Positions 3,822 to 24,714 of a stretch of DNA of 64,000 nucleotides are shown here, piece after piece. The notes below the pieces were generated by a model. It was not told the DNA's origin, made no database searches, and saw nothing but the letters and a program-made list of their open reading frames with translations. This stretch comes from a virus (Duplodnaviria > Heunggongvirae > Uroviricota > Caudoviricetes), in IMG/VR virus record IMGVR_UViG_3300028833_000001, positions 127,171 through 191,170 of that record; one strand, 5' to 3'. Positions within the stretch are counted from its first letter, which is position 1; every line of letters begins with the position of its first letter. Made by a program: the position numbers and the translations under genes.

Positions 3822-3876
3822 GGTACGCAAACGCGTACCCTTGTTTTAGAAAAACCCGCTTTACGGCGGGTTTTTT
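3822..3876. terminator. two adjacent hairpins: the GGTACGC-AAAC-GCGTACC palindrome, then A5-CCCGC..GCGGG-T7 (a bidirectional intrinsic terminator)
   Basis: aaggtacgcaaacgcgtacccttgtttt ... aaaaacccgctttacggcgggttttttt. Confidence 0.55.
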
Positions 3877-3920
3877 TGTAGGAAAATAATAATACTTTAA
3901 AAATTAAAATTCATTTAAAT

Positions 3921-4622
3921 TTAAAAATTAGGAGAATTTTGTTTTTCTTTTTTAAGTAATTCAATACATTTACGTGCCACATGGATAATTTTCTTAAAGT
4001 CCATAATTCTTGAGTCCACATATGACATACCAGGTTCATATTTCTCACGCAGGACTCTCTTTACAATATCTGCCTCCCATGGGTTGAGGTCATAGTCTTC
4101 CCAGATATCCCATGGTTGGATTTTATGTTGGCTATAATTTGAATTACCTACATTGAATGAACGGATGTCATCCTCTTCCACATTAAAATCTTCATCATAT
4201 TTATCGTCATCTTCATCATAGTCAATATCATCATAATCAATTTCAATTTCAGTATCTCCATTTACGGTGTCAGATTTTTCATCAAACATAAATGGGGGGT
4301 CATCGTCTTCCTCGTCATAGTCATAATTGTTAGGGTACGCAGACGCGTACCTATCTTCCTGGCATTCGTCTTGTGTTTCCGCCTGGCATTCACACATGCC
4401 GTTCATACATTCTTTATCACTACCATGCAACAAGTTGTTGTATGGATTGTCACATTTTTCATATGTGTCAGGTTCTGCACAGACTTCTGTTACAGTTGAA
4501 CTCCACTCAGGAGTGTTGGAGGTTGTTGCTATCGTGTGTGCGTCATTACAACAATTTGGATAACCCGTCAATTTATCTTCGCATTCAGTTTCAATTTTAA
4601 TTGGAATTACTTTTTTTGTCAT
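3921..4622 (-). CDS. Cys-rich, highly acidic protein with D/E/Y-rich repeats
   Basis: 233 aa containing DYDDIDYDEDDDKYDEDF. One copy of the palindrome element sits inside the CDS at 4333-4351. Confidence 0.5.
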   Translation of the reverse strand: MTKKVIPIKIETECEDKLTGYPNCCNDAHTIATTSNTPEWSSTVTEVCAEPDTYEKCDNPYNNLLHGSDKECMNGMCECQAETQDECQEDRYASAYPNNYDYDEEDDDPPFMFDEKSDTVNGDTEIEIDYDDIDYDEDDDKYDEDFNVEEDDIRSFNVGNSNYSQHKIQPWDIWEDYDLNPWEADIVKRVLREKYEPGMSYVDSRIMDFKKIIHVARKCIELLKKEKQNSPNF

Positions 4623-4766
4623 TTAATCAAACGTTTAATCTTATTATTATGCATTATAATAATACAATTAAAATTGACATTAAACAAGGATTATTTGTTT
4701 TTTTTTTTATTAAAATGACAAAAAAAACCAGGAATATTTTTCCTGGCTTTTTTGGACCATGATATA

Positions 4767-5645
4767 TTAGTAAGCAATGGCGGGAGCAATCATTGTTTTA
4801 AGTTTCTCGATAGCACCGTTTCTGAGTTGTCTAACTCGTTCGGATGACAATCCAAGGATTTCGGCAATTTCTTTGTCCTTATACTCCTTATAGTAGTCTC
4901 CGATGCCAGCATACATTTTAATGATTGTAGCTTCACGTTCTGACAGCTCATTCATAGCTGAGGAAAGAATATATGACAGATTATCTTTGTCCATCACATC
5001 CACATAATCGTTATGCGAGGAAGAAACAATTGCAAATTCGGAAGAATCTTCCATAGTGTATTCATCATCATCGGGACTGCAAGAATCGTCAATATACTCA
5101 ATAGAAGCGCCATAGATGTCACCTGAGTTCTTTACATCAATCCCGTATTCTTCATCCAAAATGGCAACAACTTCGGATGCCAAAGGAAGACGATGATGTT
5201 CATTATAGAAGGCTTGTTCAATCTTTTTGATTTTTGGAGACACGCGGGCATTGTTTGTAGGGACAACCATCATATTCTCTTTGTTGAGAAACTGATTAAT
5301 GGAGCGTCTAATATAGTAATCGGCAATAGTAGTGAACCTATACCCCGTGGCAATGTCATAGGCATAGAAGGCTTCAATCGCGCCACAATTAGCCTCGCTG
5401 ATTAAGTCACCGAGAAGGTCATTCGTGGCATATCTTTTTGCGATAGCGAAGATGAATCGCTGATTACCCTCAATGATTTCATTTCTGATTTGGAGTTTTC
5501 TCTCATTGTCTTCACTTGCATTATACTCTTCAAAGAGTTCTTTCTCCCTTTCGGGAGTCATCACTTTGAGTTTATTGAGGTCATGCAGATAAGACTTCAT
5601 AATGTCAGTTCTTTCAATGAAATTCGTTCTTTTCTTAATGTCCAT
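4767..5645 (-). CDS. sigma-70 family RNA polymerase sigma factor with regions 2, 3 and 4
   Basis: Region 2: FIFAIAKRYATNDLLGDLISEANCGAIEAFYAYDIATGYRFTTIADYYIRRSI. Region 4 HTH: IAEILGLSSERVRQLRNGAIEKLK. The sigma-54-type motif lies 44 nt upstream. Confidence 0.85.
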   Translation of the reverse strand: MDIKKRTNFIERTDIMKSYLHDLNKLKVMTPEREKELFEEYNASEDNERKLQIRNEIIEGNQRFIFAIAKRYATNDLLGDLISEANCGAIEAFYAYDIATGYRFTTIADYYIRRSINQFLNKENMMVVPTNNARVSPKIKKIEQAFYNEHHRLPLASEVVAILDEEYGIDVKNSGDIYGASIEYIDDSCSPDDDEYTMEDSSEFAIVSSSHNDYVDVMDKDNLSYILSSAMNELSEREATIIKMYAGIGDYYKEYKDKEIAEILGLSSERVRQLRNGAIEKLKTMIAPAIAY

Positions 5646-5688
5646 ATTCTTCCTAATTTTTGTTTATAAAATATTTTTGGTACATATT

Positions 5689-5705
5689 AGCAAATACCGT
5701 GCCAA
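5689..5705 (-). promoter_or_regulatory. sigma-54-type -24/-12 promoter motif
   Basis: Minus-strand TTGGCACGGTATTTGCT, 44 nt upstream of the sigma-factor ATG at 5645. Confidence 0.5.
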
Positions 5706-5799
5706 AATTTACATTACGCCATAAACCAAAAAAAAACGCTATTAATTTGTAATTAACAATATAATAGCGCTCTACGAAAAAATAAATTAAAATTTGTCA

Positions 5800-6285
5800 C
5801 TAAAAAATATGTTCATACGATATGTTGCTATCAACAAAGGTTATTTTATAGGTAGTTCTTTTCTTATTGTCATCTATGACAAGTAATGACAATTTGTCAG
5901 GTTCAATTTCTCTTACAAGTCTAAATTTCTTGTACTCTGCAAATATGTCAGTCAAGAACTGCCTCAATGTTTGGTTTGGCAGTGACCCTTTCTTTGATGT
6001 AATGGTCACCAAGTTGTCAGCCACGGTTGAATGTTTCAGTTTAACAAGAAACATACGATAAACGATTAGTTTCATATCTTTATTCCAATTCTTAAAATCT
6101 TTGGATTTATTGTCTTGCGGTTCTTTATCATTCTTTTCGCAAATAGTGATATAATCCTCATAGGGGAAATCATTTATCGTATCAACATATAATTCAATTT
6201 CATTTACCATATATGAATAAATTTTAATTTTATTATCAATTATAATATAACACATTTGTATAAAAAAAGAAAGGAGAATCCGCAT
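5800..6285 (-). CDS. hypothetical protein
   Basis: 161-aa ORF. Confidence 0.45.
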   Translation of the reverse strand: MRILLSFFIQMCYIIIDNKIKIYSYMVNEIELYVDTINDFPYEDYITICEKNDKEPQDNKSKDFKNWNKDMKLIVYRMFLVKLKHSTVADNLVTITSKKGSLPNQTLRQFLTDIFAEYKKFRLVREIEPDKLSLLVIDDNKKRTTYKITFVDSNISYEHIF

Positions 6286-6523
6286 TTTAATGCAAATTCT
6301 CCATACTCACAAACACACAATTAAAATTCTTGATTATGACAGGGAATCAAGTACCCTTGTAGCGTTTCGGGAGACAATTTTAATTTGAATGACTATTTTC
6401 GGTATAATAATTCTTAAAAAAAATTTGCTGTACGTCTCCCCAAAGTTTAAATTGTATAACCCTTAATCATCACTACTATAATACAAATTAAAATTGATAA
6501 AAACAAGTTTTTTTTGAAAAAAA

Positions 6524-6913
6524 TTAATTCAATAGAAATTTGTACACAACCTGCCCATACAAGGTTCGTTTTCGCAATACAGCGTAGCAGTTTTTGTCAT
6601 TATAGGTTGTAAGGCAGGCGGATTCTTTATTACCAAGCGGATTGCAACGGTATGTACATTTATCACCTTGTCGGTCAATCCGTGTAATCGGGAATGAATA
6701 GTCAATTAGACCATCAACTCCGTATGTGGAAAACTTCAACGAATCCCCGCAAACAAATGTGGTGTCAATCATAATCCACGCGTCTGAGAGGGCGTATTCC
6801 GTGTCTTCAACCACACACGACTTTTTAACGGGTACAAGCACATCCTGGGCATAAGTCGCGCCAATGATAGATGCGCAAATGAAAATCGCAATAATTGTAA
6901 TAAATTTCTTCAT
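6524..6913 (-). CDS. secreted Cys-rich protein with an N-terminal signal peptide
   Basis: Starts MKKFITIIAIFICASIIGATYAQ and has 8 Cys. Confidence 0.5.
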   Translation of the reverse strand: MKKFITIIAIFICASIIGATYAQDVLVPVKKSCVVEDTEYALSDAWIMIDTTFVCGDSLKFSTYGVDGLIDYSFPITRIDRQGDKCTYRCNPLGNKESACLTTYNDKNCYAVLRKRTLYGQVVYKFLLN

Positions 6914-7123
6914 ACAAATGATTTTATGTTAAACTTTAATTTAATATGTCAAAGAACTTTTTAATTGAGCAGCATAGCAGAGTCGAACTGCCGATTCAAC
7001 CTTGGAAGGGTTGCGTGTTACCACTACACTAATGCTGCTTGTACGCAAATGCGTACCCTACATTTCTGGTGCTTCCAGAGCCAAACCTTTTTAATTATAC
7101 TGATTTTTTTTCAAACAACCAAA

Positions 7124-7360
7124 TTAATATTCATCATCTGCAACCTCAGCGTTTGGTTGGTTGTATGTGTTCTGATTTTTCCAATGCTCTTTCCATAGAT
7201 GCTTCTTACAACCGTCGGAGATGAAGATTACGATGACAAGACTTATTCCGCATAGGATGGTGTACCAAACGGTGGTGAATACTGCGATAGCACCGATTGC
7301 GAGTGTCATAATCACGAATATTAGACCTATGCTTGCCCAAATTGCCTTTTTATTACTCAT
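7124..7360 (-). CDS. small membrane protein
   Basis: Two TM helices. The start was moved to the internal Met to avoid overlap with 7374..7637. Confidence 0.4.
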   Translation of the reverse strand: MSNKKAIWASIGLIFVIMTLAIGAIAVFTTVWYTILCGISLVIVIFISDGCKKHLWKEHWKNQNTYNQPNAEVADDEY

Positions 7361-7373
7361 AGTAACTATTGTT

Positions 7374-7637
7374 TTAATAATTGAAATTAGGATTGTTCTT
7401 GTTGTAGTCAAAGTTCCGCTTTGATGCCCATGCGAATTGGAAGACAGTCTTGATTACATCTTCGGTGGTCACGCGACCTTGTTCCTCTCTAAACCAACGT
7501 TTGTTGGTTTTCCATTGTTCAAGGAGGAAACCAATACCTTCATTCATTGCATTGTCTTCCTTCTTTACCTCTTCAAGCGTATTGATGAGGTTCACTGCGT
7601 CTTTGATTGTTTCGTTGTTGGGATTGATACTTTCCAT
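7374..7637 (-). CDS. hypothetical protein
   Basis: 87-aa ORF. Confidence 0.4.
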   Translation of the reverse strand: MESINPNNETIKDAVNLINTLEEVKKEDNAMNEGIGFLLEQWKTNKRWFREEQGRVTTEDVIKTVFQFAWASKRNFDYNKNNPNFNY

Positions 7638-7865
7638 TGTGTTTCTTTTTTATTTTTAACTATTTTTTATTTTTCACTTATACTGTATCCCGTCAATCCT
7701 TGTCTATCTCCAACCCACCCGATACTCCTTACTACGTGGTAATGTTTTTCAATATAACGCCAAGTATGACCATAGTATTGGCAGGCTTCCTTTTGGGTTT
7801 TGAAAATTTTAATACCCATAATTCTGTTTTTTTTATTATGGGTACGCGGTCGCGTACCCTTGTTA

Positions 7866-8096
7866 TTAATAACGTTTGCTGCGATGATACCAACGCTTAT
7901 GACCGAAGATTCGGTAGATGAGCATCACGATTGCCGCAACGATAATGAACACCAACACGCAGGTGGCAAATGCCGTCCATCCAAGTCCGATGGTTTCAAT
8001 TGCGGCTGCAAGGATAAACAGTTCTCCGATTTCAAAGACCACAAGAGTTGCGGTGATGATTAATGCGATAAAAATTGACGTGATAAATCTTTTCAT
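7866..8096 (-). CDS. small membrane protein
   Basis: 76 aa with two TM helices. The palindrome copy at 7840-7859 lies just downstream. Confidence 0.4.
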   Translation of the reverse strand: MKRFITSIFIALIITATLVVFEIGELFILAAAIETIGLGWTAFATCVLVFIIVAAIVMLIYRIFGHKRWYHRSKRY

Positions 8097-8121
8097 ATCT
8101 CTAAATTTTAATTGGCTTGAC

Positions 8122-8442
8122 TTATAAGTTAATTACAATTTGGTTGTCTTCCATAGGGATAGTGAACAACAAGTTATCACCATCATAGAAACCGTATCCA
8201 TCGATAAGGCTATTATATTGGTCGTTTTTAATAGCCTTCACTTTGATGCCGTTGCTGAACAACAGTTGCATAAATTCATCAGTGAATTGGCTGCAATCGG
8301 TCTTGATAGACATTTCATTTGATTCTCTGAATGCCACCACCTCATCCCCTCTATCATCAACCAAAATAAGGTCGTGAAAATCGCGTTCAAATTTGCAGTT
8401 GTTTGTTTTTATGAAATCCAAAAAAGCGTAAATAAAATACAT
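8122..8442 (-). CDS. hypothetical acidic protein
   Basis: 106-aa ORF. Confidence 0.45.
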   Translation of the reverse strand: MYFIYAFLDFIKTNNCKFERDFHDLILVDDRGDEVVAFRESNEMSIKTDCSQFTDEFMQLLFSNGIKVKAIKNDQYNSLIDGYGFYDGDNLLFTIPMEDNQIVINL

Positions 8443-8461
8443 AATCTTAAAATTTTATTGG

Positions 8462-8968
8462 TTATTTATTAAGTTCGTGAAAAATTGCCGACAGCATATC
8501 AATACTTAAATTAGCAATTGGCTCACTTGTGGTGTATTCAGTACCATCTTCGCCATAGTATCGTACTGACACGCAATATTGATAGTCCTGCCAATACACA
8601 CAATCGTAGTGGTTTCCGTATTCCGATATGGAAATGTCAATGCTATCCTCTCCAACTTTGCTTTTGAGTGCATCGTTGATGATGCTCACAATTGTGAACA
8701 TATTGGCTCTTATGTTGATGTGGGTATTGGCAAACAACGTTTCATACGTTACTCTGCACTCCCAACAATTTTCCAACACATCCTCATCAATTTCATCATA
8801 AGTTTCTTTGAACTCAACTCCGTTGATATAACGGATAACATATTCATCGGTGAATGAGCCGTTTTGGATTTCAAATACGTCACCATTCCATACATCAGCG
8901 GCAAATTGAACATCTCCGTTCTTCTCCACCTCATCGTGGATAACTTTGATTAATTCTTCTTTTGTCAT
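8462..8968 (-). CDS. hypothetical acidic protein
   Basis: 168-aa ORF. The motif at 9002-9018 lies 34 nt upstream. Confidence 0.5.
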   Translation of the reverse strand: MTKEELIKVIHDEVEKNGDVQFAADVWNGDVFEIQNGSFTDEYVIRYINGVEFKETYDEIDEDVLENCWECRVTYETLFANTHINIRANMFTIVSIINDALKSKVGEDSIDISISEYGNHYDCVYWQDYQYCVSVRYYGEDGTEYTTSEPIANLSIDMLSAIFHELNK

Positions 8969-9001
8969 AATTGAAAATCTTAATTTGTTGTTTGCTATAC
9001 C

Positions 9002-9018
9002 TGCAATTATCGTGCCAA
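9002..9018 (-). promoter_or_regulatory. sigma-54-type -24/-12 promoter motif
   Basis: TTGGCACGATAATTGCA, 34 nt upstream of the ATG at 8968. Confidence 0.5.
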
Positions 9019-9021
9019 AAA

Positions 9022-9720
9022 TTAAAACCTACACCATAAGAGACCTTGCACAATTCCATCTTCTGCACCGATGATATATTGAGGTTTATTGATTTTCATA
9101 AAAGAAGCCACAATGTTTTGATAGCGACAAAATTCCAAATCATTATCTCTCAAATCACTAACATCTTTGAGACCCAAGACATCAACATACAGATAACCTT
9201 TAACTTCAACGCAGGATGGATTCTCCAAAGTTTCAAGGTCAATTGGTTCACCGAATAGTTTGTCTATATCCAAAAGGTCGTTATAGGTTAAATCCATTTG
9301 TGATTTCAGTCCATTCTTGGTTGCAAATTTCACAATTTCTTTATAGTTATCAATATTCTCATTGAAATCATTGTAACGTGACGAAACAATTTCCCAAATG
9401 TCACACACATCGTCAAAAATCAATCTATAACTCGCCACTCTATCCTCATTTTCAACCTCAACATAAAATTCGTTATCATCTTTGAAGGTTTTGATTTGCT
9501 TTACTTCTTCACACATTGACGAGGCATATTCAACGTGATTACCGCCATCGTATGCGATATATAAACCATCGTCATACCGCTTGGTTGTGAGATTGATTGT
9601 ACCACCCATTTCTTTAATCATTGTGACAATATCTGAAACAATGTCACATCTCAATGCTAATGTTTTGGAATGATATTCCTCTAAACGAGACTTAATGTCT
9701 TTGTTATTGATTGCCGCCAT
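9022..9720 (-). CDS. hypothetical protein, paralog of 11557..11901 in its C-terminal domain
   Basis: LENPSCVEV...IIGAEDGIVQGLLWCRF compares with LENPTCITT...LIGAENGICKGIMYCVW. Confidence 0.5.
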   Translation of the reverse strand: MAAINNKDIKSRLEEYHSKTLALRCDIVSDIVTMIKEMGGTINLTTKRYDDGLYIAYDGGNHVEYASSMCEEVKQIKTFKDDNEFYVEVENEDRVASYRLIFDDVCDIWEIVSSRYNDFNENIDNYKEIVKFATKNGLKSQMDLTYNDLLDIDKLFGEPIDLETLENPSCVEVKGYLYVDVLGLKDVSDLRDNDLEFCRYQNIVASFMKINKPQYIIGAEDGIVQGLLWCRF

Positions 9721-9777
9721 AATTCTTAATTTTAATTTTATATAAAAATAAAAAGTGTTGTGTTATGTGACATTTTG

Positions 9778-10074
9778 TCAGTTACACCTTGCCAATCTAA
9801 TGACACTATCTTCATAGACGTCAATGATTTCCCAATCCTCATTGTTCATCGTGTCACGCAGAACTGTGTCGGTGGAGATTAGATAGAAGAATATCACTTC
9901 ATCAAAGGTATTGTCACCTGCCAATTTGTCATATTCTTCTTCCGTGCAATAACACATTGTGACACGTTCAGTCTTTCCGTTGTCCTTGAATTTGATTTCA
10001 CAATCAAATGTGAAAGGTGTTGTCGGGGAAGAGATAAGGACATCAGCTAATTTGGTTAAAATTTCTCTATTCAT
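9778..10074 (-). CDS. hypothetical acidic protein
   Basis: 98-aa ORF. Confidence 0.4.
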   Translation of the reverse strand: MNREILTKLADVLISSPTTPFTFDCEIKFKDNGKTERVTMCYCTEEEYDKLAGDNTFDEVIFFYLISTDTVLRDTMNNEDWEIIDVYEDSVIRLARCN

Positions 10075-10086
10075 TGTTTATGGGGT

Positions 10087-10626
10087 TTATTGGTGATTAA
10101 AATTGATGATTTCCTGCGTGTAATCTTCGGCAATTTTGGAAAGTTTGAAATAATCTTCCCACACGTCATCCTCAAAGCTTAACCCATTTACTACACAAGT
10201 TTTGCAGTATTGGGTATCAATGTATTTGACGTGAATGTACTCATCGTGTGTTTCAATTTTGATATTGATGGAATAGCCTTCATTATTGGCTTTATCAACG
10301 ATATTGGCAATTTCATCGCAATCATAAAAACATACATAGTCATTATCGCCAAACAATTCGATTGAGCGCATAAACTCGGTAAATTCTTCGCACGGCATAT
10401 CGCACAATTTTTGAAGAGCATCAACCTGCTCTTCGTTTTTCTGATTGGCAGGTTTTTCTTCACCAACATATTTGAATGACGCACTATAATACTCTCCAAC
10501 GCAGTTTATCTCATCAGCTAATCCATCATAAATAACGTCAAGCGACCCATTATCAATTAGACGTTCTGTATCCGCCAAAGCCTCAGTTACGCGATAATCT
10601 TCCGCTTGAATTTCAACTTTAATCAT
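10087..10626 (-). CDS. hypothetical acidic protein
   Basis: 179-aa ORF with the promoter motif upstream. Confidence 0.5.
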   Translation of the reverse strand: MIKVEIQAEDYRVTEALADTERLIDNGSLDVIYDGLADEINCVGEYYSASFKYVGEEKPANQKNEEQVDALQKLCDMPCEEFTEFMRSIELFGDNDYVCFYDCDEIANIVDKANNEGYSINIKIETHDEYIHVKYIDTQYCKTCVVNGLSFEDDVWEDYFKLSKIAEDYTQEIINFNHQ

Positions 10627-10671
10627 AATTCTAAATTTTAATTGTTACTATTAATTTGTCATTAATCTATA

Positions 10672-10688
10672 TGCAATTATCGTGCCAA
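10672..10688 (-). promoter_or_regulatory. sigma-54-type -24/-12 promoter motif
   Basis: TTGGCACGATAATTGCA, 46 nt upstream of the ATG at 10626. Confidence 0.5.
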
Positions 10689-10691
10689 ACC

Positions 10692-11462
10692 TCACTCTTC
10701 ATACGAAATCACACGAGGCAGTCCGTTCCTTGAAAGATTCTCATAAATTTGAGTTTCATCGGGATTTATATCCTCCGCAAGTGTCAACGCTTCTTCTTCT
10801 GTATGCGCCTCCACGACAAATTCTTCTGTTGTGGTATATTCAACTTTGATTGTGTATTTCTTTTTGGGGGTTTCCAACTCTTCGAAATACTCATTAACTT
10901 CTTCCCGCGACATTTCCGTAAACCACGGCTCAATCTCCTTGTAATTGGTAGGGATGGTATCGGAGACCTCAATCAAATCACCTTTCCACGTTCCAACCAT
11001 TTCCATAAGTGTACCATTGTAGTCTCCACCACCACAACCATTTCCATCAGCAGTAAGAATTGGAAGAGGATGAGCAATTCCGCCCCAACCTTTCATATCG
11101 GGAATTGTCTGCTTTTTGAGGTCAAACCATTCCTTTTTGTCGTGATTGATATAGATGGTATTGTCATCAAGCGCGCGCTTCACAATAGAGATTTCGATTT
11201 CATCTAATGGGTCAACTTTTTCCGCCTTATAGGTCAAATCATAGTAATTATCATTACCGATAACGGCATCGCCATAATCACCTGCCCAAACAAGTCTTTT
11301 AGGGCATTCAATCATTTTGTAGGTAACATTCATCACGAACTTATTACCAATATACGAATGCTCCATTAATTTAGAACCATTATTTGTGTCCCAAGAATCA
11401 AAATATTCTTTTACATTGTCTTTTTTTTCTGTGATGAAACACGCTTTATAATATTGTCCCAT
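10692..11462 (-). CDS. hypothetical protein
   Basis: 256-aa ORF with the promoter motif upstream. Confidence 0.5.
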   Translation of the reverse strand: MGQYYKACFITEKKDNVKEYFDSWDTNNGSKLMEHSYIGNKFVMNVTYKMIECPKRLVWAGDYGDAVIGNDNYYDLTYKAEKVDPLDEIEISIVKRALDDNTIYINHDKKEWFDLKKQTIPDMKGWGGIAHPLPILTADGNGCGGGDYNGTLMEMVGTWKGDLIEVSDTIPTNYKEIEPWFTEMSREEVNEYFEELETPKKKYTIKVEYTTTEEFVVEAHTEEEALTLAEDINPDETQIYENLSRNGLPRVISYEE

Positions 11463-11538
11463 AATTTTAATTTAATTTGTTAATACTAATTTTAATTGTT
11501 TTTAATGAAAGTTGGGTACGCAAACGCGTACCCTATAT

Positions 11539-11555
11539 ACGCAATAATCGTGCCA
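11539..11555 (-). promoter_or_regulatory. sigma-54-type promoter motif followed by the palindromic hairpin
   Basis: TTGGCACGATTATTGCG, with the palindrome GGGTACGCGTTTGCGTACCC immediately downstream (11513-11532). Lies 77 nt upstream of the ATG at 11462. Confidence 0.45.
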
Positions 11556-11556
11556 A

Positions 11557-17233: not shown

Positions 17234-17261
17234 TCACTTCAATTTTTATTCGTTTGCTATT

Positions 17262-17278
17262 ATACAAAAACTATGCCA
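17262..17278 (-). promoter_or_regulatory. sigma-54-type promoter motif (TGGCAT variant)
   Basis: TTGGCATAGTTTTTGTA, ~29 nt upstream of the ATG at 17233. Confidence 0.4.
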
Positions 17279-17555: not shown

Positions 17556-17556
17556 A

Positions 17557-17787
17557 TTATTTCAGTTTTTCCAATATTTCTTCAATTCTTACACAATCTT
17601 TCGCATCAGCCAACCCATATTTATCCAACCTGCGAAATTCAATCTCATCACCATTGCAGATGTCGGCAACATAATCAACACCCAACGCTTGCGACACCTT
17701 TGAAGATAAAGATTGCATTGCAAGTTCAAGTTCGTTGCTCTTCTGCAAACACTTGGCATACGCTTTATTTATTTCACTCTTTGTCAA
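17557..17787 (-). CDS. hypothetical protein
   Basis: 76-aa ORF. Confidence 0.4.
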   Translation of the reverse strand: MTKSEINKAYAKCLQKSNELELAMQSLSSKVSQALGVDYVADICNGDEIEFRRLDKYGLADAKDCVRIEEILEKLK

Positions 17788-17796
17788 TGTGTTGTG

Positions 17797-18177
17797 TTAT
17801 TTTGTTGTGTACATATCCTCGGTGGCTTCCAATGCAAGCCCCATAGGAATTAAACCATAGTAATCAAAGTGATTGGAATTTAACCAATGTACCCAATTCA
17901 CTGCGTTTCGGTAATTGAAAATAGAGTTGGAATTGATAAATTTGTCATATTCGTATCTCTCCTCCATAGTCATAGATGACATTGGTCGTAGGTAGGGTTT
18001 AACATCAGTTAAATATACGGAATAGCAATCATCGGTTCTAAAAGAAATATTTGGGACTATACTTAAAATGCCTTGAATTGTTTGTGGTGTGTCGTGCCCT
18101 TTTACAAAAATTTTTACCCCATAAGGCAACATTGCACAAATGACTTGTAGTAACAATTCTTTTTCTTCTTGTGTCAT
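17797..18177 (-). CDS. hypothetical protein
   Basis: 126-aa ORF. Confidence 0.45.
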   Translation of the reverse strand: MTQEEKELLLQVICAMLPYGVKIFVKGHDTPQTIQGILSIVPNISFRTDDCYSVYLTDVKPYLRPMSSMTMEERYEYDKFINSNSIFNYRNAVNWVHWLNSNHFDYYGLIPMGLALEATEDMYTTK

Positions 18178-18220
18178 AATAATCTAAATTTTAATTAACG
18201 TTTGTTTTGAATTTTAATTA

Positions 18221-18478
18221 TTACAAATTATCCTCATCAGTTTCATTGTAGTCAGCGAGGCATCGTTCAATTGAAATATGAGCATCGCCAAAGCATATTT
18301 CATCATCCTTAAACGTTTCCCAATCGGTGATTGCCGTTTCTTTTATGTCCTCCACAACGTCATACAAATAATCTTTCGCAATGGTTTTTGCCTCTTCGTT
18401 GTCACATCCGAGACTTGTTTCGGCAAAGAAAAAAATCTCATCTTTTACCAATTCAATTTGTCTTTTTGTCAGTTCCAT
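18221..18478 (-). CDS. small hyper-acidic protein
   Basis: 85 aa with more than 30% D/E. Confidence 0.45.
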   Translation of the reverse strand: MELTKRQIELVKDEIFFFAETSLGCDNEEAKTIAKDYLYDVVEDIKETAITDWETFKDDEICFGDAHISIERCLADYNETDEDNL

Positions 18479-18496
18479 ATCATTTGTGTTTTTGGT

Positions 18497-18922
18497 TTAC
18501 AAATATTGCAGGATGGTGATGATTGCCTCACGCTTTTGGTCCTCATCATAAATCAAAATCTCCTCCGCATCCTTATCTGTGTATGGATTTCCGCTCCAAA
18601 AATAGATGTCAGCTCCGTTAGTAGTAACATTGGTAATTGTCGCTCCGTTGCATTTGATACCAAAATCTTCAACTGACAAATTGTCAGTATCAAACTCATC
18701 GAATTGGTCTCTCAATTCACATTCCAAGTTGAAAAGGCTTCGTTCATCGTCCCAAATTTCCATCAAGTCATCTCTTGTCTCCGCATCCTCAACGGAGCAG
18801 AGTTCAACAAAATCAAATTCAGCAGGGATGTTCATCATCTCAAATTTGCTTTTTATTTCAGCAATGGAGTCACCACTAAATTTCTTTGCCACTCTAAAAG
18901 TTACGATTGCTTGTTTTTCCAT
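18497..18922 (-). CDS. hypothetical acidic protein
   Basis: 141-aa ORF with the promoter motif 35 nt upstream. Confidence 0.5.
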   Translation of the reverse strand: MEKQAIVTFRVAKKFSGDSIAEIKSKFEMMNIPAEFDFVELCSVEDAETRDDLMEIWDDERSLFNLECELRDQFDEFDTDNLSVEDFGIKCNGATITNVTTNGADIYFWSGNPYTDKDAEEILIYDEDQKREAIITILQYL

Positions 18923-18956
18923 ACCATAAATTTTAATTGGTTAGACGCACCATATA

Positions 18957-18973
18957 TACAAAAAGCGTGCCAA
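18957..18973 (-). promoter_or_regulatory. sigma-54-type -24/-12 promoter motif within a repeated cassette
   Basis: TTGGCACGCTTTTTGTA. The flanking AATTGGTTAGACGC and CACGCTGACAACAATTAAAATTAAGATT are shared with other copies. Confidence 0.5.
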
Positions 18974-19013
18974 ACTTATAAAGCAGGCACGCTGACAACA
19001 ATTAAAATTAAGA

Positions 19014-19418
19014 TTATGATAAATTGATAGTATCTAAATCAATATTACAAATGTAGTCAAAATCTTCAAACCAATCCGATTTATGGTTGTAAACGGTCGG
19101 GTGCGTGTATGGTTTCATATCATCATTTAAGTAACAATATTGATAATAGTAACATTTGCCGTCTCTTGATGGTTTGGAATCAAGTATTGCTATATAATAT
19201 TGGTAATTTCGTAATGGTTCAAATGGATTGTTCGTATCACTAATATTGAAGCATCCATAAACTCCACCAATCTTCAATTGGTCTTTGTTATCATTTTTTT
19301 TCTTCTTGTCATTTATGTTTTCAACAATACATTCAATTGATTTGAATATGAAGAAAGAGAAAACAAGAACGACAAAATTGTAAATGATAAACGATAGTAA
19401 TGTAGTAAACGTAATCAT
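19014..19418 (-). CDS. membrane-anchored protein, tandem paralog of 19430..19852
   Basis: N-terminal TM helix, then IGGVYG...YYIAILDSKPSRDGKCYYYQY...DIDLDTINLS. Confidence 0.5.
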   Translation of the reverse strand: MITFTTLLSFIIYNFVVLVFSFFIFKSIECIVENINDKKKKNDNKDQLKIGGVYGCFNISDTNNPFEPLRNYQYYIAILDSKPSRDGKCYYYQYCYLNDDMKPYTHPTVYNHKSDWFEDFDYICNIDLDTINLS

Positions 19419-19429
19419 AAGTTTTTTGA

Positions 19430-19852
19430 TTATGAAACTTTTATGCTATTCAAGTCAATATCCTTTACATATTCCCAATTATCAAAATAATTTGTTTGAT
19501 TACTATAAATCATAGTGTCACTATAACTGCTATATGGTGACATATTGTCATTTAGAAAGACATATTGGCAGTATTCACAATGTCCATCCCTTGATGGTTT
19601 TATGTCAAGGATTGCCACATAATAACCATAGTCGTGAATAGGGGAAAATGGGTCATTATTATCACCATAAAATCGTCTTTTTCCATATATTCCACCAATA
19701 TTCAATGATGACTTGACTTTTTTCTCTTTTTGTATCTTCTTATTGCTCCTAATATTATCAATGATGTGGCGGAAAAATTTGAAAAATGTGATTGAAAACA
19801 CACTAATGAAGATTGTGAATGAAATAAATGATGGTATATTAAAGGTAATCAT
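19430..19852 (-). CDS. membrane-anchored protein, tandem paralog of 19014..19418
   Basis: IGGIYG...YYVAILDIKPSRDGHCEYCQY...DIDLNSIKVS. The start was set to the internal Met to avoid overlap. Confidence 0.5.
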   Translation of the reverse strand: MITFNIPSFISFTIFISVFSITFFKFFRHIIDNIRSNKKIQKEKKVKSSLNIGGIYGKRRFYGDNNDPFSPIHDYGYYVAILDIKPSRDGHCEYCQYVFLNDNMSPYSSYSDTMIYSNQTNYFDNWEYVKDIDLNSIKVS

Positions 19853-19863
19853 AATTTTAATTT

Positions 19864-20760
19864 TTATTCTTGAACGTAAATCTTTCTTATTCTTCCCTCC
19901 CACACATCAAGACGATAGGAATCCACAAAACTTACTTGGTATACGTCATCGGAACACCGATATGTGACGTTTTCGCCAACGTATTGACTATTGAATGCCT
20001 CAACGGCTTCTTCATATTTTTTCTTCATCGCAGCGGCAGCGGAAGCGTGAGACTTATAAACAGTTGTATCCTCTTCAAGACCAAATCTACTGCCATCCTC
20101 CCAAACCGATGTTGCGACATAGACATAATCTAAATTGAATACCACTTTACGTTGTTCCCTATTGATTTCACCCTTAACATCCTCAATGGCATCTTCTTCA
20201 CCATTGATTACAGCAAGAATTAATGACAATCCACGATTGTCCTTCAAATAATCGGCAACGATTTGGAAATATTTGTTTTGGAAATCATTGTCATAACCGC
20301 TAACAATTTTTGCTGCGGCACGTTTTGCAAACCTTTCCCTCAATTCGGTATCAACGAAATGCTCAATTTCTTCATCATAGAACGGCAAATCATTTTCGGT
20401 GTAACATAATAGTTCATACATAATCAGTTCACGATGCTCTTCGCAAGCACCCGAAAACATCATCACCTTATCAATGATTCTCTCCACTTGCATTTGGTAG
20501 GTGTCCATTGATGTTTGTTTGATTTCATACTCAACCCTATTACCATCGGAAATGGTGGCATAATCATTACCTTTCCAAACATCATACCCGTTGAAAACGA
20601 AATGCTCGCCTTTGCTTGCAAGTATATCTTTTTTAATTTTAATTTCACTTGCAACTTCTGCGAACATAACTTCTTGTGCTTGCGTAAAAGTTGGGAATGA
20701 CCAAACAAGCGTATCGTTATGCAGTTGAGTTCTGATGACATTAAAAATTTTAATCTTCAT
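19864..20760 (-). CDS. hypothetical protein
   Basis: 298-aa ORF with the promoter motif 52 nt upstream. Confidence 0.55.
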   Translation of the reverse strand: MKIKIFNVIRTQLHNDTLVWSFPTFTQAQEVMFAEVASEIKIKKDILASKGEHFVFNGYDVWKGNDYATISDGNRVEYEIKQTSMDTYQMQVERIIDKVMMFSGACEEHRELIMYELLCYTENDLPFYDEEIEHFVDTELRERFAKRAAAKIVSGYDNDFQNKYFQIVADYLKDNRGLSLILAVINGEEDAIEDVKGEINREQRKVVFNLDYVYVATSVWEDGSRFGLEEDTTVYKSHASAAAAMKKKYEEAVEAFNSQYVGENVTYRCSDDVYQVSFVDSYRLDVWEGRIRKIYVQE

Positions 20761-20811
20761 AATCTTATATTTTTAATTGTTGATGATTTGAATTACTTGT
20801 GTTGTGCTATA

Positions 20812-20828
20812 TGCAATTATTGTGCCAA
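20812..20828 (-). promoter_or_regulatory. sigma-54-type -24/-12 promoter motif
   Basis: TTGGCACAATAATTGCA with the upstream GTTGTGCTATA element. Confidence 0.5.
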
Positions 20829-20829
20829 A

Positions 20830-21057
20830 TTAAAAATAGTAACTCACCTCATCCTCATTAAAAGATGTTCCGTTTTCGTTGTTGTAGTCTTCAATTGCAA
20901 GTGATGGGATGTAGGATTCACCTGCAAGTTCAAACTTGCCATTCTTAATGAGTTCCTCCAAAACTGAATTGTCATCGGCAGATAACAATTTTTTGATTGT
21001 ATCTTCATCTGCCTTTATGTCAACACCTACTCTCATCCAAATTTTTTGTTCTTGCAT
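20830..21057 (-). CDS. hypothetical acidic protein
   Basis: 75-aa ORF. Confidence 0.4.
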   Translation of the reverse strand: MQEQKIWMRVGVDIKADEDTIKKLLSADDNSVLEELIKNGKFELAGESYIPSLAIEDYNNENGTSFNEDEVSYYF

Positions 21058-21104
21058 AATACTGAATTTTAATTGTGAATATTAATTTTAAGTGTTGTGC
21101 TATA

Positions 21105-21121
21105 TGCAATTATTGTGCCAA
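21105..21121 (-). promoter_or_regulatory. sigma-54-type -24/-12 promoter motif
   Basis: TTGGCACAATAATTGCA, 48 nt upstream of the ATG at 21057. Confidence 0.5.
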
Positions 21122-21271
21122 CTTACCTGCGCCTCCAATATAATTTTCCGATGAGGTGTTTTCTATTTGATGGCTCAATGATAAACCATTTCCACCATTC
21201 AAGTCTTCCGATATTGATATACTCCCCTACAATCAGTTGAGGGCGGCTCGCCATAGCGATTATGTCATCCA

Positions 21272-21481
21272 TTATTCGTTACCACCATTAAGTTCAAGGT
21301 AAATGTCAGTACACATATCGTCAAAATTGGTTGTGCCGTCATTATAATCATCAAGGACTTCAATGATGGTTTCGTAGTCGCTATCAGCGTCAAGGTTGTC
21401 GGAAATGAGGTTGTTAATTCTAACAATGTCATCTTCACCCAATTCAAGGGCGAATGAATAATCTCTAATAATTTCTTCCAT
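21272..21481 (-). CDS. small hyper-acidic protein
   Basis: 69 aa, extremely D/E-rich. Confidence 0.4.
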   Translation of the reverse strand: MEEIIRDYSFALELGEDDIVRINNLISDNLDADSDYETIIEVLDDYNDGTTNFDDMCTDIYLELNGGNE

Positions 21482-21494
21482 AATGTTATTAATT

Positions 21495-21728
21495 TTAATT
21501 AAACAAATTCATAAATCTACTTTCAAAATCTCTTAAAGTATCTTCGGCAAAATCATCCCACCAATCTTCGCGCTGGCAAGCGCGCAAATATGTAATATTT
21601 GCAACAATATTATTATACTCTTCACAAAACCGTTTTTTCTCCACATTTCGTTTTAAGTTAATGGTTGCCAATGTAATGAAGAAAATTACAATCAATGATA
21701 AGATGATGATTAAAATTATAATTGTCAT
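21495..21728 (-). CDS. small membrane protein
   Basis: N-terminal TM helix. Confidence 0.4.
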   Translation of the reverse strand: MTIIILIIILSLIVIFFITLATINLKRNVEKKRFCEEYNNIVANITYLRACQREDWWDDFAEDTLRDFESRFMNLFN

Positions 21729-21763
21729 ATTCTTATTCTTTTTGCGATATTACAAATATTAAA

Positions 21764-22012
21764 TTAATTTTCAAAATATAAAAAATTCTCAATGCCATCA
21801 ATATCCTCGCAAGAACCGAGAAATTCGTCATTCTCATATACGTTGTACCCACCAACGATGTCGGGTTCAATTGTATAATCATCCTCCCAATAATACGGCT
21901 CTACCGATAGAGTTCTATCGTCAACTTCAAAATAGACGTTGAAGCATTCGCCAACTTTCGGTTGGTATTCGTTGAGGTTTTCGGAATTGATGGTTACGAT
22001 GTTCTTACTCAT
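21764..22012 (-). CDS. small acidic protein
   Basis: 82-aa ORF with the promoter motif 38 nt upstream. Confidence 0.45.
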   Translation of the reverse strand: MSKNIVTINSENLNEYQPKVGECFNVYFEVDDRTLSVEPYYWEDDYTIEPDIVGGYNVYENDEFLGSCEDIDGIENFLYFEN

Positions 22013-22049
22013 AGTGATAAAATTTTAATTGGTTAGACGCTATCATATA

Positions 22050-22066
22050 TGCAAAAAGCGTGCCAA
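22050..22066 (-). promoter_or_regulatory. sigma-54-type -24/-12 promoter motif (perfect consensus)
   Basis: TTGGCACGCTTTTTGCA. Confidence 0.5.
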
Positions 22067-22112
22067 ACCGTTTGACACGCTTAACTGACACATTGGCATT
22101 TGATTTGTGACA

Positions 22113-22379
22113 TTATGGCATAAATGCCATAGAAATCGCTTCTTTTAACTTGTTTTGGTAGTCATCTTCGTTATCGGTGTCATATTCAAACCAACCGACA
22201 ATTTCACCATCAAAATATAGTGTTGCAGCATCTCCGTCATATTCTACTTCAACCAATCCACAGTCGGTTGTTGATAGGTCTTCAAGCGCGTCCTGCTTCT
22301 CTCCATAGACAATAATTGTGTTGTCATCAAAGCAAAGAGGCGTTTTATCTTCTTTAATGATAATGTAATCAATAACCAT
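22113..22379 (-). CDS. small acidic protein
   Basis: Start set at the internal Met (MVIDYIII...) preceded by CAATTAAAATTA. Confidence 0.4.
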   Translation of the reverse strand: MVIDYIIIKEDKTPLCFDDNTIIVYGEKQDALEDLSTTDCGLVEVEYDGDAATLYFDGEIVGWFEYDTDNEDDYQNKLKEAISMAFMP

Positions 22380-22383
22380 AATT

Positions 22384-23169
22384 TTAATTGTTTTTTGAAT
22401 ATTCTTTAATCGCTCCCTCAATCGCTTCTTTCACCTCTTCATAGGTGCAACGTACAGAAGCGTCAAACGTGTACTCCATAGCGTATTTTCCTGCGATTTG
22501 AGAGATTTTTTCATCCTCATTGGTATTGTCGGTCAATGAGGACTTAAACACCGCCAAATACTCCGTTTTTTTCTTTTCAGTAAAATCATCAATAAAATCG
22601 TAATAGTCAGTAAAGTCATCATCATCTCTTTCTTCCCACAACTTTTCCGCCTGCAATGCCCAATCTTGGATTTTACCGACAATAACATCTCTCGGAATGT
22701 CGGTTGTTGATGATATTTCCTCAAAACATTGCAGGGCAATCTCAATGCAGTTCTCCTGCACACGCAGGTTACGATAATGTGCGTCCAAATCAATCGGATT
22801 TTTGACGGGAGGAATAATGGCATCACGAACGGACTTACAAGCCTCCATATCTCCACGCATAGTGGCATAGAGCAAGTCAATCCAACTGACATTATGCAAG
22901 TCCATAAGGTTTCTTGCTTTCTCACCATCCATAAAATTGTTAAAGTCATCAATAGTTACGTTGCAATTGTCAGCACCGATTTGACGGAATGTACCCATCA
23001 AATCTTCAAAAACGAAGAGTTCTATTGACTTTTCGTATAATTCAGAATCGGAATAGTGTTCAAGTGCTTGAATCACCACTTCTTTGGTTATAGTGGTTTT
23101 AGCGTTCGGGTATCTATCTTTGAGATAGGAAATGATGACTTCTGCCATTGAATTTTTAATTTCACTCAT
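22384..23169 (-). CDS. hypothetical protein
   Basis: The first ATG at 23196 is only 10 nt from the promoter motif, so the second Met (MSEIKN...) is the likelier start. Confidence 0.5.
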   Translation of the reverse strand: MSEIKNSMAEVIISYLKDRYPNAKTTITKEVVIQALEHYSDSELYEKSIELFVFEDLMGTFRQIGADNCNVTIDDFNNFMDGEKARNLMDLHNVSWIDLLYATMRGDMEACKSVRDAIIPPVKNPIDLDAHYRNLRVQENCIEIALQCFEEISSTTDIPRDVIVGKIQDWALQAEKLWEERDDDDFTDYYDFIDDFTEKKKTEYLAVFKSSLTDNTNEDEKISQIAGKYAMEYTFDASVRCTYEEVKEAIEGAIKEYSKNN

Positions 23170-23205
23170 AATCACTAAATTTAATTGGTTAGGCATTATC
23201 CATTA

Positions 23206-23222
23206 TGCAAAAAGCGTGCCAA
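23206..23222 (-). promoter_or_regulatory. sigma-54-type -24/-12 promoter motif (perfect consensus)
   Basis: TTGGCACGCTTTTTGCA. Confidence 0.5.
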
Positions 23223-23301
23223 AAATACAAATTGTCATATAAAAAAAACCCACCATTTAGGTGGGTTACATTCATATCACACAAAACCACTCAGAGGTCT
23301 A

Positions 23302-23817
23302 TTACTTGTTGATGGTATTGACAATACCACGGATAAGACTGACAACGTTGTCACGCAAATCTGCCACGCTGTCAGTATGTAACATTTCGGCAGCCTCCAA
23401 TTCAGCTTCGCGATTATCCAATTCAGCTCCACGAGCATTCAGTTCCTCTTCACGCTCATCAAGGTCAATCTCTCGTTCGTCCAATTCAGCATCTCTAACG
23501 TTGAGGTCGTGTTCCCTACCATCAAGTTCATCTTCTCTTGCGTCAAGTTCCTCCTTGCGCTCATCATAGTTGTGACAACAAGTGTTCTCACAAACTTCAT
23601 CATCGCACTCGTCACCATCAACGGAAAGAATGTCCTTCGCCAACTTGATGTAGCGTTCAATCGAAGTGTTGTCGGTAGCAGGTGCAGATTTCGGCATAAT
23701 CGCCTTGATGACGATAGCGTCAAGCATTGAATCAAGCATCATAATGTCCGTGATGGACATATTAGCAATAGCATTCATAATTCCGTTAATAACCATCTTC
23801 TTAATGTTGTTCTTCAT
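23302..23817 (-). CDS. coiled-coil protein with tandem heptad repeats (ELDxREx) x ~7
   Basis: LDAREDELDGREHDLNVRDAELDEREIDLDEREEELNARGAELDNREAELEAAE. Confidence 0.5.
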   Translation of the reverse strand: MKNNIKKMVINGIMNAIANMSITDIMMLDSMLDAIVIKAIMPKSAPATDNTSIERYIKLAKDILSVDGDECDDEVCENTCCHNYDERKEELDAREDELDGREHDLNVRDAELDEREIDLDEREEELNARGAELDNREAELEAAEMLHTDSVADLRDNVVSLIRGIVNTINK

Positions 23818-23867
23818 ACTTTTGAAATTTTAATGTTTATAAAAAATTGTTATTGGATTTTGTTCTA

Positions 23868-23884
23868 TGCAACTATCGTGCCAA
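23868..23884 (-). promoter_or_regulatory. sigma-54-type promoter motif adjacent to the palindromic hairpin (23888-23907)
   Basis: TTGGCACGATAGTTGCA, 51 nt upstream of the ATG at 23817. Confidence 0.5.
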
Positions 23885-23915
23885 AATGGGTACGCAAATG
23901 CGTACCCTATATTTT

Positions 23916-24602
23916 TTAATATCCGTAGTTGTAAATCATATTGGAGTAATTGAAATTGACAAAGTTAATAGTATCGTCATATTCCAACTTCTCAATGAAA
24001 TCCTGCGGCTCAACTCCCTCATTGATGAAAGTGTTGATTTGCTCGCAGAAATGGATATTCTGCTCATCAACCTCTTCGGTTGTATGTGCACCAAATGAGA
24101 GGCATCTTGCCTCCGATGGATTGCTGACAAACATATAGGTAAAGAAACCACGTAGCTTGTAGCGTGTAGCGAACTCGGAGGCATAGCACCATATACCAAT
24201 AATCTCTCTATAACGCAGTAAATCCACGTTGTCGGCATCAATGATATATGGAGACATCCTGCTATAACCAACCGCAATGTCAGCGTCGAGACAATATTGA
24301 CCGCTCATATCCATACAATCACCATAAATGGCATCGTAATAGGTATCATAGTCCATAATATCGTCCAAGTCGGAATATTGATTGTTAATAACCTCAATGT
24401 CATCATCGGCACGGAAAAGACCGCTGCCAGTTCCGTGACCAAGAAATAGACACGTTTCATAGGGTCTATTGCGTAAGACCTCTTCCAATTCAGACCTCTT
24501 TGGGTTGACCAATACAATGTTGTCGGGATTGGCTGACAAATTGTCAAAGAGACGTGACATAATGTCGGTGTCGTGTTGTGTGTTAATGTGTACAGCTATC
24601 AT
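23916..24602 (-). CDS. hypothetical protein
   Basis: 228-aa ORF. Confidence 0.5.
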   Translation of the reverse strand: MIAVHINTQHDTDIMSRLFDNLSANPDNIVLVNPKRSELEEVLRNRPYETCLFLGHGTGSGLFRADDDIEVINNQYSDLDDIMDYDTYYDAIYGDCMDMSGQYCLDADIAVGYSRMSPYIIDADNVDLLRYREIIGIWCYASEFATRYKLRGFFTYMFVSNPSEARCLSFGAHTTEEVDEQNIHFCEQINTFINEGVEPQDFIEKLEYDDTINFVNFNYSNMIYNYGY

Positions 24603-24667
24603 AACTCTATCTAATGATTTTTAATATTATTATACAAACTTTTTTCTTGTCTGCCAAATATACCTTA

Positions 24668-24684
24668 TTCAAATATAGTGCCAA
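24668..24684 (-). promoter_or_regulatory. degenerate sigma-54-type motif (TGGCACT-N4-TTGAA) adjacent to the palindromic hairpin (24690-24708)
   Basis: Minus-strand TTGGCACTATATTTGAA, 66 nt upstream of the ATG at 24602. Confidence 0.3.
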
Positions 24685-24714
24685 ACTTTGGGTACGCAAG
24701 TGCGTACCTAAAAA

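Follow-up and report, generated by a model that had tools for sequence, protein, structure and literature searches.

A conserved multi-copy palindrome in the small-gene block of an uncultured phage and its relatives

Introduction

Short palindromes that recur within one replicon are familiar as operators, such as those of phages lambda, 434, and P22 and the KorA and KorB sites of plasmid RK2, and some auxiliary operators, among them lac O2 and gal OI, lie within genes. Here, we describe a palindrome of this general appearance, GGGTACGC-N4-GCGTACCC, in a 64,000-nt stretch of DNA (IMG/VR record IMGVR_UViG_3300028833_000001, positions 127,171 to 191,170; hereafter the window) from an uncultured phage found on contigs of 0.3–0.4 Mb. 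The palindrome is present in seven copies within a block of small genes that is also rich in a second motif, TGGCAC-N5-TTGC, which resembles a sigma54 promoter. Based on the number, placement, and conservation of the copies, we tentatively read the palindrome as the double-stranded DNA recognition site of a symmetric dimeric regulator that would control selected transcription units, a reading that in our judgment comes close to, without quite reaching, an even call. The protein that would bind the site is most likely a phage-encoded transcription regulator, with a host factor as the alternative.

The palindrome shares several properties with the operators of phages and plasmids. It is a short perfect dyad with several copies per replicon, the centers of its half-sites are approximately one helical turn apart across an unspecified spacer of fixed length, and its copies take varying positions relative to promoters (upstream, over the start, or distant), including one in-gene copy ∼0.5 kb from another. 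It differs from them in that the promoters here follow a -24/-12 (sigma54-like) rather than a -35/-10 pattern, many copies hug the preceding stop codon, the orientation of the flanks is constant with respect to transcription, and no cognate protein was found in the searches described below. A similar geometry is seen in the class II activator sites of the FNR/CRP type, in which TTGAT-N4-ATCAA is centered at -41.5. The palindrome is likewise a 5-N4-5 dyad, and at the modal spacing of 8 nt its center falls at approximately -42.5 from the inferred transcription start. In contrast to FNR/CRP sites, however, the palindrome keeps no fixed distance to the promoter (2–26 nt), the accompanying promoter motif is sigma54-like, and our searches identified no CRP-family protein. 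Activation of sigma54 promoters normally needs an AAA+ enhancer-binding protein, and the signature of these proteins (GAFTGA) was not found in the window. Although a multi-copy operator-like palindrome is of an ordinary kind, we found no description of this specific element, its clade, or its promoter context in the sources that we searched.

Results

When up to two mismatches are allowed, GGGTACGCNNNNGCGTACCC matches the window at exactly seven sites, which start at positions 3821, 4333, 7039, 7840, 11514, 23888, and 24690. These are the seven copies listed in a first-pass annotation of the window, whose coordinates were off by 1 to 2 nt at most. One hundred dinucleotide-preserving shuffles of the window gave no match, and thus the frequency of the pattern does not match the shuffled expectation. 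The copies carry zero to two mismatches to the palindrome, and every one of them contains the 16-nt core GTACGC-N4-GCGTAC without a mismatch; the sole additional match to the core at up to two mismatches (22471) is at chance level. The extended form in this phage is WWGGGTACGC-N4-GCGTACCCWW. Nothing is conserved beyond ∼22 nt around the copies, on which ground mimicry of a CRISPR repeat or solitary repeat was rejected. The GC-rich character of the element against an AT-rich background had been recognized early on, and amounts to 50–75% G+C in the 20-mers as compared to ∼35% in the surrounding region.

All seven copies are confined to 22 kb of the block of ∼50 small minus-strand open reading frames (ORFs) that occupies the window from 3.3 to 28 kb; the palindrome was not found in the window from 25 to 64 kb, nor in the 5.2 kb past its left edge (L179). 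Within the block there is a clear positional bias, as six of the seven copies are intergenic whereas only 12.3% of the block is (binomial P = 2e-5).

The promoter-like motif is found in the same block. Twelve exact copies of TGGCAC-N5-TTGC lie at 5.7–25.1 kb (window positions 5690–25121), on the minus strand only, where 0.11 would be expected, and ∼10 near-matches raise the number of sigma54-like (-24/-12 type) motifs in the block to ∼22. Each motif is found ∼35–60 nt 5′ of a start codon on the coding strand, and the extended consensus is TT-TGGCACG.T..TTGC-ATATAG. From this sequence and placement, we infer that the motifs are promoters of the sigma54 -24/-12 pattern. Dense arrays of the motif also occur in several independent IMG/VR contigs of 30–300 kb (L012, L013, L016, L030, L157, and L163). 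We found no report of phage regulons on sigma54-like promoters in the literature searched.

Three of the seven copies directly adjoin such a motif, all on the minus strand. Copy 1 (24690..24709; sense strand AGGTACGC-ACTT-GCGTACCC) lies 5 nt 3′ of the stop codon of ORF 24715..25071, and the promoter motif TGGCACTATATTTGA (24669..24683), which has one mismatch in its -12 element, begins 6 nt downstream of the copy (8 nt from the GCGTAC core). Copy 2 (23888..23907; GGGTACGC-ATTT-GCGTACCC) lies 8 nt 3′ of the stop codon of ORF 23916..24602, with the promoter motif TGGCACGATAGTTGC (23869..23883) beginning 4 nt downstream (6 nt from the core). The two copies therefore bracket ORF 23916..24602, which encodes a protein of 228 aa, and their orthologs are retained in relatives (L020, L024, and L027 for copy 1; L020, L029, L027, and L024 for copy 2). 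Copy 3 (11514..11533) takes the opposite position, 7 nt downstream (9 nt to the core) of the promoter motif TGGCACGATTATTGC (11541..11555), and would thus cover the inferred transcription start; it is missing from the orthologous promoter and 5′ untranslated region in L013. This arrangement, with one copy downstream and two copies upstream of their promoters, agrees with the earlier description.

The remaining four copies, also on the minus strand, are located more diversely. Copy 4 (7840..7859; loop GACC) occupies a 46-nt intergenic spacer that contains no promoter motif, with the ATG of a 50-aa ORF (7667..7819) 20 nt downstream. Copy 5 (7039..7058) has lost the outer pairs on its 3′ side, and its core stops 2 nt short of the 5′ end of a tRNA-Gly(tcc) gene (6967..7038, minus strand). 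Copy 6 (4333..4352) is the only one within a gene, ORF 3921..4622 (minus strand), where it is in frame as previously noted. The encoded peptide is RYASAYP; the first residue had been misassigned in the earlier AYASAYP. Copy 7 (3821..3840) lies 9 nt past a canonical intrinsic terminator (3850..3871, minus strand; ACCCGCCGTAAAGCGGGTTTTT), and is followed 9 nt downstream by a degenerate promoter-like motif (3797–3811), with a gene for a small membrane protein (3359..3721) beyond.

Relatives of the window phage were found at the protein level. A megablast of window positions 3–12 kb and 40–64 kb against GenBank phages gave no nucleotide match, the nearest proteins are at most 39% identical (from Prevotella Lak, Maribacter, and Flavobacterium phages), and nearly all genes of the block are without a recognizable family. 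Related loci were collected as a graded series, from exact-protein look-ups and homolog searches, and total 178 kb. These loci contain 38 exact TACGC-N4-GCGTA cores, as compared to 0.1 expected, and only four one-mismatch variants, as compared to 2.4 expected by chance. The ten core positions are thus unchanged in 38 copies, and the consensus over the related phages is RTACGC-RNNY-GCGTAY. The dyad extends to the degenerate positions, with R at position 1 matched by Y at position 16, and also into the spacer, which always opens with R (29 A, 9 G) and closes with Y (37 T, 1 C). Every copy has a 4-nt spacer, which sets the half-site centers 9–10 bp apart, and spacers are AT-rich and never form GNRA or UNCG tetraloops. 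Compensatory pair changes were not seen in any copy of the family. The first-pass annotation had considered 8-bp half-sites to suit a dimeric binder; the dyad, the fixed free spacer, and the lack of covariation are in keeping with that suggestion, but the conserved half-site is shorter (5–6 bp, RTACGC) and no binder was found in our searches.

Conservation is readily followed at the 228-aa gene. In homologs with 86, 71, 63, and 57% identity, both flanking copies are kept with an exact core, while the loops drift (ACTT, GTTT, ATCT, AAAT), the outer GG..CC pairs become GG..AT, and the promoter lies anywhere from 2 to 13 nt away. In four lineages, the palindrome also follows homologs of a 271-aa gene. 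More distant phages (∼43% identity) contain many copies of the form ATACGC-(AGTT/AACT/AATT/AAAT)-GCGTAC, seven of them within 20.5 kb of L030; since this variant lacks the GG, the palindrome was rejected as a mimic of a GG-N10-GC sigma54 site. Palindromes and promoter-rich blocks co-occur in several independent viral contigs. The exact 20-mer pattern, by comparison, gave only five single, unrelated matches in IMG/VR. Among the matches listed from a search of 185,579 species genomes, the pattern was scattered, nearly always single, and mostly in high-GC genomes, and these matches included no host-genome family of the 20-mer and none resembling the window.

Across all of these phages, 17 of ∼40 copies precede a promoter motif by 2–26 nt, most often by 8–9 nt as counted to the -24 element. 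When transcription starts are placed 12 nt past the GC of the -12 element, the palindrome center would be near -42/-43 at the modal spacing. Four copies lie just downstream of a promoter motif, at spacings of 6, 9, 12, and 28 nt, over or past the inferred start. Other copies have no recognizable promoter nearby.

The most informative locus is that of copy 7, for which the gene order is shared by six phages (the window, L030, L172/L186, L163/L184, L185, and L187). In each, the end of the preceding gene is followed by a U-tract intrinsic terminator, a spacer of 6–33 nt, the palindrome, in some cases a promoter motif, and a gene for a small two-transmembrane-helix protein (3359..3721, minus strand, in the window). 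Wherever the upstream region was examined, the preceding genes are the sigma-factor gene and a gene of the type that encodes a 233-aa protein in the window. The sigma factors of these phages are 40–55% identical to that of the window, where measured. No two of the six phages have terminator stems of related sequence, whereas the palindrome core is identical. As an internal control, this shows that the palindrome is not the terminator and that the constraint on it is one of sequence, not fold. Moreover, a palindrome located after a terminator and before the next promoter is a conserved copy in a spacer that would be mostly untranscribed. The membrane-protein gene is probably a regulated target.

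The in-gene copy upstream of this locus also has an equivalent in L030, which is in the same frame and encodes KYATAYN although the surrounding protein cannot be aligned; in L172, it is half decayed. The distance between the in-gene and post-terminator copies is 512 bp in the window and 492 bp in L030.

The sigma factor encoded in the block belongs to the sigma70 family (4767..5645, minus strand; Sigma70_r2 and r4). Homologs are present in L030, L163, and L172, and in L030 and L155 a palindrome copy lies downstream of the promoter of the sigma-factor gene. In the window, this gene has its own TGGCAC-N5-TTGC motif upstream (5690–5704).

Discussion

As an operator, the palindrome would mark a subset of the transcription-unit boundaries in a block of sigma54-like promoters. 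If, as we infer, a protein binds the site, it could gate particular promoters, either by repression or by activation from a promoter-proximal position, and could also block read-through into the next unit. The in-gene copy, ∼500 bp from the post-terminator copy, could then serve as an auxiliary operator. The core is invariant at 40% protein identity, which needs purifying selection for a sequence-specific function.

Several observations weigh against an operator. Pfam recognizes only the sigma factor among the 50 ORFs of the block, so that no DNA-binding protein has been identified for the site, and three candidate proteins chosen by position are not DNA binders. The promoter spacing of 2–26 nt is unfit for a stereospecific activator, and for this reason repression or road-blocking would fit better. 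In one group of relatives, the sense strand reads ATACGC...GCGTAC in almost every copy (one in-gene copy has GCGTAT) and the flanks are oriented, and this strand-constant form points to a strand-specific function or to copy-paste spread; the point is weakened by one contig that has both G and A at the first core position. Approximately half of the copies lie 0–10 nt past a stop codon, a position that is also apt for a 3′-untranslated RNA element, and copy 7840 and the tRNA-abutting copy are without a promoter nearby and have no obvious operator role.

These last points lead to the main rival, in which the palindrome acts as a sequence-specific RNA hairpin in the sense transcript, its GUACGC stem being recognized by an RNA-binding protein or endoribonuclease of the phage or the host. 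Such a hairpin could direct the processing of polycistronic mRNA, so that a protective hairpin is left on the 3′ end of the upstream mRNA or on the 5′ end of the downstream one, or could load an antitermination factor as lambda nut/boxB does. We regard it as unlikely, while still a serious contender. It would account for the single transcribed orientation of every copy in a co-directional gene block, the flank asymmetry that is constant relative to the direction of transcription, the large share of copies 0–10 nt past a stop codon, the core that stops 2 nt before the mature tRNA 5′ end, and the copies at approximately +1 of promoters, which would become 5′-terminal hairpins. Folding energies of the window copies are also favorable, from -11 to -15.5 kcal/mol (z-scores between -2.8 and -4.8). 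The RNA hairpins of lambda nut/boxB and the RNase III processing sites of T7 early mRNA are comparable in that they are short, repeated in early operons after first genes and promoters, and conserved within a phage. The palindrome differs from them, however, since its loop, which is what RNA-binding proteins usually recognize, varies freely in sequence, its stem is too short for RNase III, and one conserved copy stands between a terminator and a promoter, where in six phages it would rarely be transcribed. In addition, pairing has been lost at the outer positions (A.C or G.A in the sense strand), leaving a stem of just 5 bp in 23 of 43 copies, and these 5-bp stems, about half of the total, reach a minimum free energy of only -7 to -9 kcal/mol. 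Transcription at two promoter-proximal copies would start inside the left arm, so that the hairpin could not form in that transcript. The adjacency to a tRNA is not conserved either (spacing of 50–128 nt in L163), and no copy has an Rfam match. Many of the same features dispose of an intrinsic (factor-independent) terminator or attenuator stem, which the first-pass annotation had put forward and which we reject. A GC-rich stem of 5–9 bp with a 4-nt loop, often at gene ends and with a minimum free energy of -7 to -15.5 kcal/mol, has the outward form of a terminator, and copies 11514 and 3821 (sense strand) as well as 7840, 3821, and 23888 (antisense strand) are picked up by a permissive consensus scan. 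These matches fall on inconsistent strands with interrupted T tails; at least five T in the 8-nt sense tail are found in only 1 of 43 copies, and tails are not conserved. True U-tract terminators lie directly upstream of the palindrome in the six phages, copies occur inside coding sequence, abutting a tRNA, and just after promoters, and an invariant sequence is not expected of a terminator, the stem of which should vary while pairing is kept. A hairpin-type promoter for a phage-specific RNA polymerase is also very improbable. Such promoters are used by the N4 virion RNA polymerase, with transcription starting ∼11 nt from the hairpin center. Each intergenic copy does have a same-strand gene downstream, and the tRNA 5′ end is ∼11 nt from the center of copy 7039, but this adjacency is again not conserved, the loop varies, no phage RNA polymerase was recognized in the window, and a perfect palindrome gives no direction.

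Two further explanations operate at the level of DNA. The palindrome could be a small recombination or mobility element that spreads by copy-paste and shuffles gene cassettes with no regulatory role of its own, which we consider improbable. Presence or absence differs between relatives in three cases (11514 is missing in L013; L013 12020 and L020 13801 are without a window counterpart), the flanks are uniform within a genome (ATAGG in closer relatives, TA...ATA in more distant ones), orientation is constant, and the surrounding DNA is a patchwork of shuffled small genes and repeated promoter cassettes. Yet most copies are within continuous homology blocks and not at breakpoints, the 11514 difference is a replacement rather than a clean insertion, and no target-site duplications are present. 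Bacterial REP elements, which are GC-rich intergenic palindromes with a GTAG-type 5′ tetranucleotide and a Y1 transposase (RAYT), are similar in being multi-copy, GC-rich, intergenic, and ∼20 nt long. In contrast to REP elements, the palindrome has one orientation, no clustering, no lineage-wide 5′ tetranucleotide (the 5′ flank is TAGG or TA depending on the lineage), and no host family among the matches listed, and no Y1 transposase or RAYT gene was recognized among the 50 block ORFs; the only transposon-type gene is an unrelated TnpB at 43–44 kb. A closer phage precedent is given by the promoter-early stem-loop (PeSL) cassettes of T4-type phages, which consist of terminator-like stem-loops whose sequence differs between phage pairs (PMC2839356, PMC4122927). 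As in PeSLs, a stem-loop lies directly upstream of a promoter, is repeated between small genes of a hyperplastic region, and is linked to some indels. However, PeSLs contain an early sigma70 promoter, as opposed to the TGGCAC-N5-TTGC motif beside the palindrome, and their stems vary between phage pairs (PMC4122927, PMC2839356), whereas the palindrome is invariant over far more divergent phages, has no U-tract, and has separate true terminators adjacent. Copy-paste spread may therefore explain the uniformity of flanks within a genome; it does not explain the invariance of ten core positions at 40% protein identity. Finally, the palindrome could be the DNA target of a site-specific nuclease, nickase, or other DNA-transaction protein, for instance, a site of localized single-strand interruption, of replication or recombination initiation, or of homing endonuclease cleavage. 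A dyad with a 4-bp unspecified center resembles the sites of interrupted-palindrome enzymes, GIY-YIG-type genes (T5orf172) adjoin the block in the window and in L024, and promoterless and in-gene copies are easily accommodated. Such a target would not predict the tight association with stop codons, promoter boundaries, and promoter blocks, and the endonuclease-like genes are not conserved among relatives; we hold this to be quite improbable.

For the DNA site of a dimeric regulator, the search for the protein that binds it was based on domain content and position. Pfam and PHROGs on the flanking ORFs and Pfam on all 50 block ORFs recognized only the sigma factor and no helix-turn-helix or other DNA-binding family. 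The three candidates chosen by position were each rejected. ORF 3359..3721 encodes a membrane protein with two transmembrane helices. The 233-aa protein has a conserved C-terminal domain of a small and widespread phage type, for which Pfam did not confirm a resemblance to DUF3310/SaV; the AlphaFold model of this domain is helical (predicted local distance difference test score (pLDDT) of 78) with no fold match in the PDB, and a search of IMG/VR for relatives of the 233-aa protein found none. The 228-aa protein (confident AlphaFold model, pLDDT 85) has only weak caspase/CHAT-like matches in the PDB (SAVED-CHAT, caspases) and no DNA-binding fold. This last protein has an invariant His56 (LGHG) and Cys139 (WCYAS) and may thus be a phage caspase-like protease. 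The noncanonical LexA box of Bacteroidota, GGA-N5-TCC or CTAA-N5-TTAG (PMC8565304), was rejected, since the palindrome matches neither motif.

A more specific proposal, that the palindrome is the operator of an unrecognized phage regulator which gates a sigma54-type (-24/-12) regulon in a clade of uncultured Bacteroidota-type giant phages, is possible but doubtful. If it is true, the clade runs its early/middle program via ∼20 RpoN-like promoters per 20 kb, and one invariant 16-bp site controls a subset of them, including in some members the promoter of the phage's own sigma70-family factor, and in all members a small membrane-protein gene. Neither a phage RpoN-like regulon nor such an invariant palindrome is described in the literature that we searched. 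A site conserved base for base is one of the few handles on regulation in these genomes. It would flag the units that are under special control (the start of the promoter block, the sigma-factor operon, and the conserved membrane-protein gene), suggests that the sigma54-like promoter blocks of these phages carry an extra layer of control, and, as a 20-bp palindrome, is a ready bait for capturing the regulator. If the element instead acts as RNA, it would represent a new type of sequence-specific processing signal.

Additional features of the region

Other recurrent elements accompany the promoters. The box CTTAATTTTAATTGTTGTCAGCGTG, together with TGTCA repeats, is found at 13924–14027, 12915–13107, 18923–19013, and 22013–22112, where it stands before the promoter subclass TGGCACGCTTTTTG[CT]; it is a second upstream element that is distinct from the palindrome. 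In L012, a 216-kb IMG/VR contig, a recurrent hairpin of the form CC(N)GGGG-TATATTAAA-N5-TCCC(N)GG lies 15–25 nt upstream of many TGGCAC promoters. This hairpin has a conserved loop and apparently compensatory stem changes, the opposite of the palindrome with its invariant stem.

The membrane-protein locus has features of its own. In L184 (2790–3000) and L185 (2750–3000), a leader of ∼200 nt between the promoter and the membrane-protein gene is conserved (..CATATTAAACAATTGGATGGC.AAATGC.ACACAGGGGCTG..GAGTAGACTCC..) and may be a structured RNA. The sequence ACTATTTAT(A/T)T recurs 20–90 nt before the start codon of homologs of ORF 3359..3721 (L030 20430, L172/L186, L187, L183, and L185), even where the palindrome and the TGGCAC motif are missing, and may represent a different promoter class.

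A 697-nt intergenic region (25072–25768) lies just upstream of the first promoter of the block. Three copies of a ∼35-nt repeat (..GGAGTACCT(A/T)TTGAA..) are found there along with a G-rich stretch and clustered TGTCAG/GACA repeats, and the region may have a control or origin-like role. Within the block, (A)CAATTAAAATTT recurs 5–15 nt before the start codons of most genes and takes the place of a Shine-Dalgarno sequence.

Outside the block, the window encodes tail-fiber, endolysin, ClpB-like, UvrD-like, and TnpB proteins. The TnpB gene (43098–44369, plus strand) is of the IS605 OrfB type, with OrfB_IS605, Cas12f1-like TNB, and helix-turn-helix domains; a link between the palindrome and TnpB/IS605 was rejected, as no copies lie near 43–44 kb. 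At 2466–2548 (plus strand), the Rfam tRNA model gives a match of 37 bits, above the gathering score, at a position that ARAGORN does not report.

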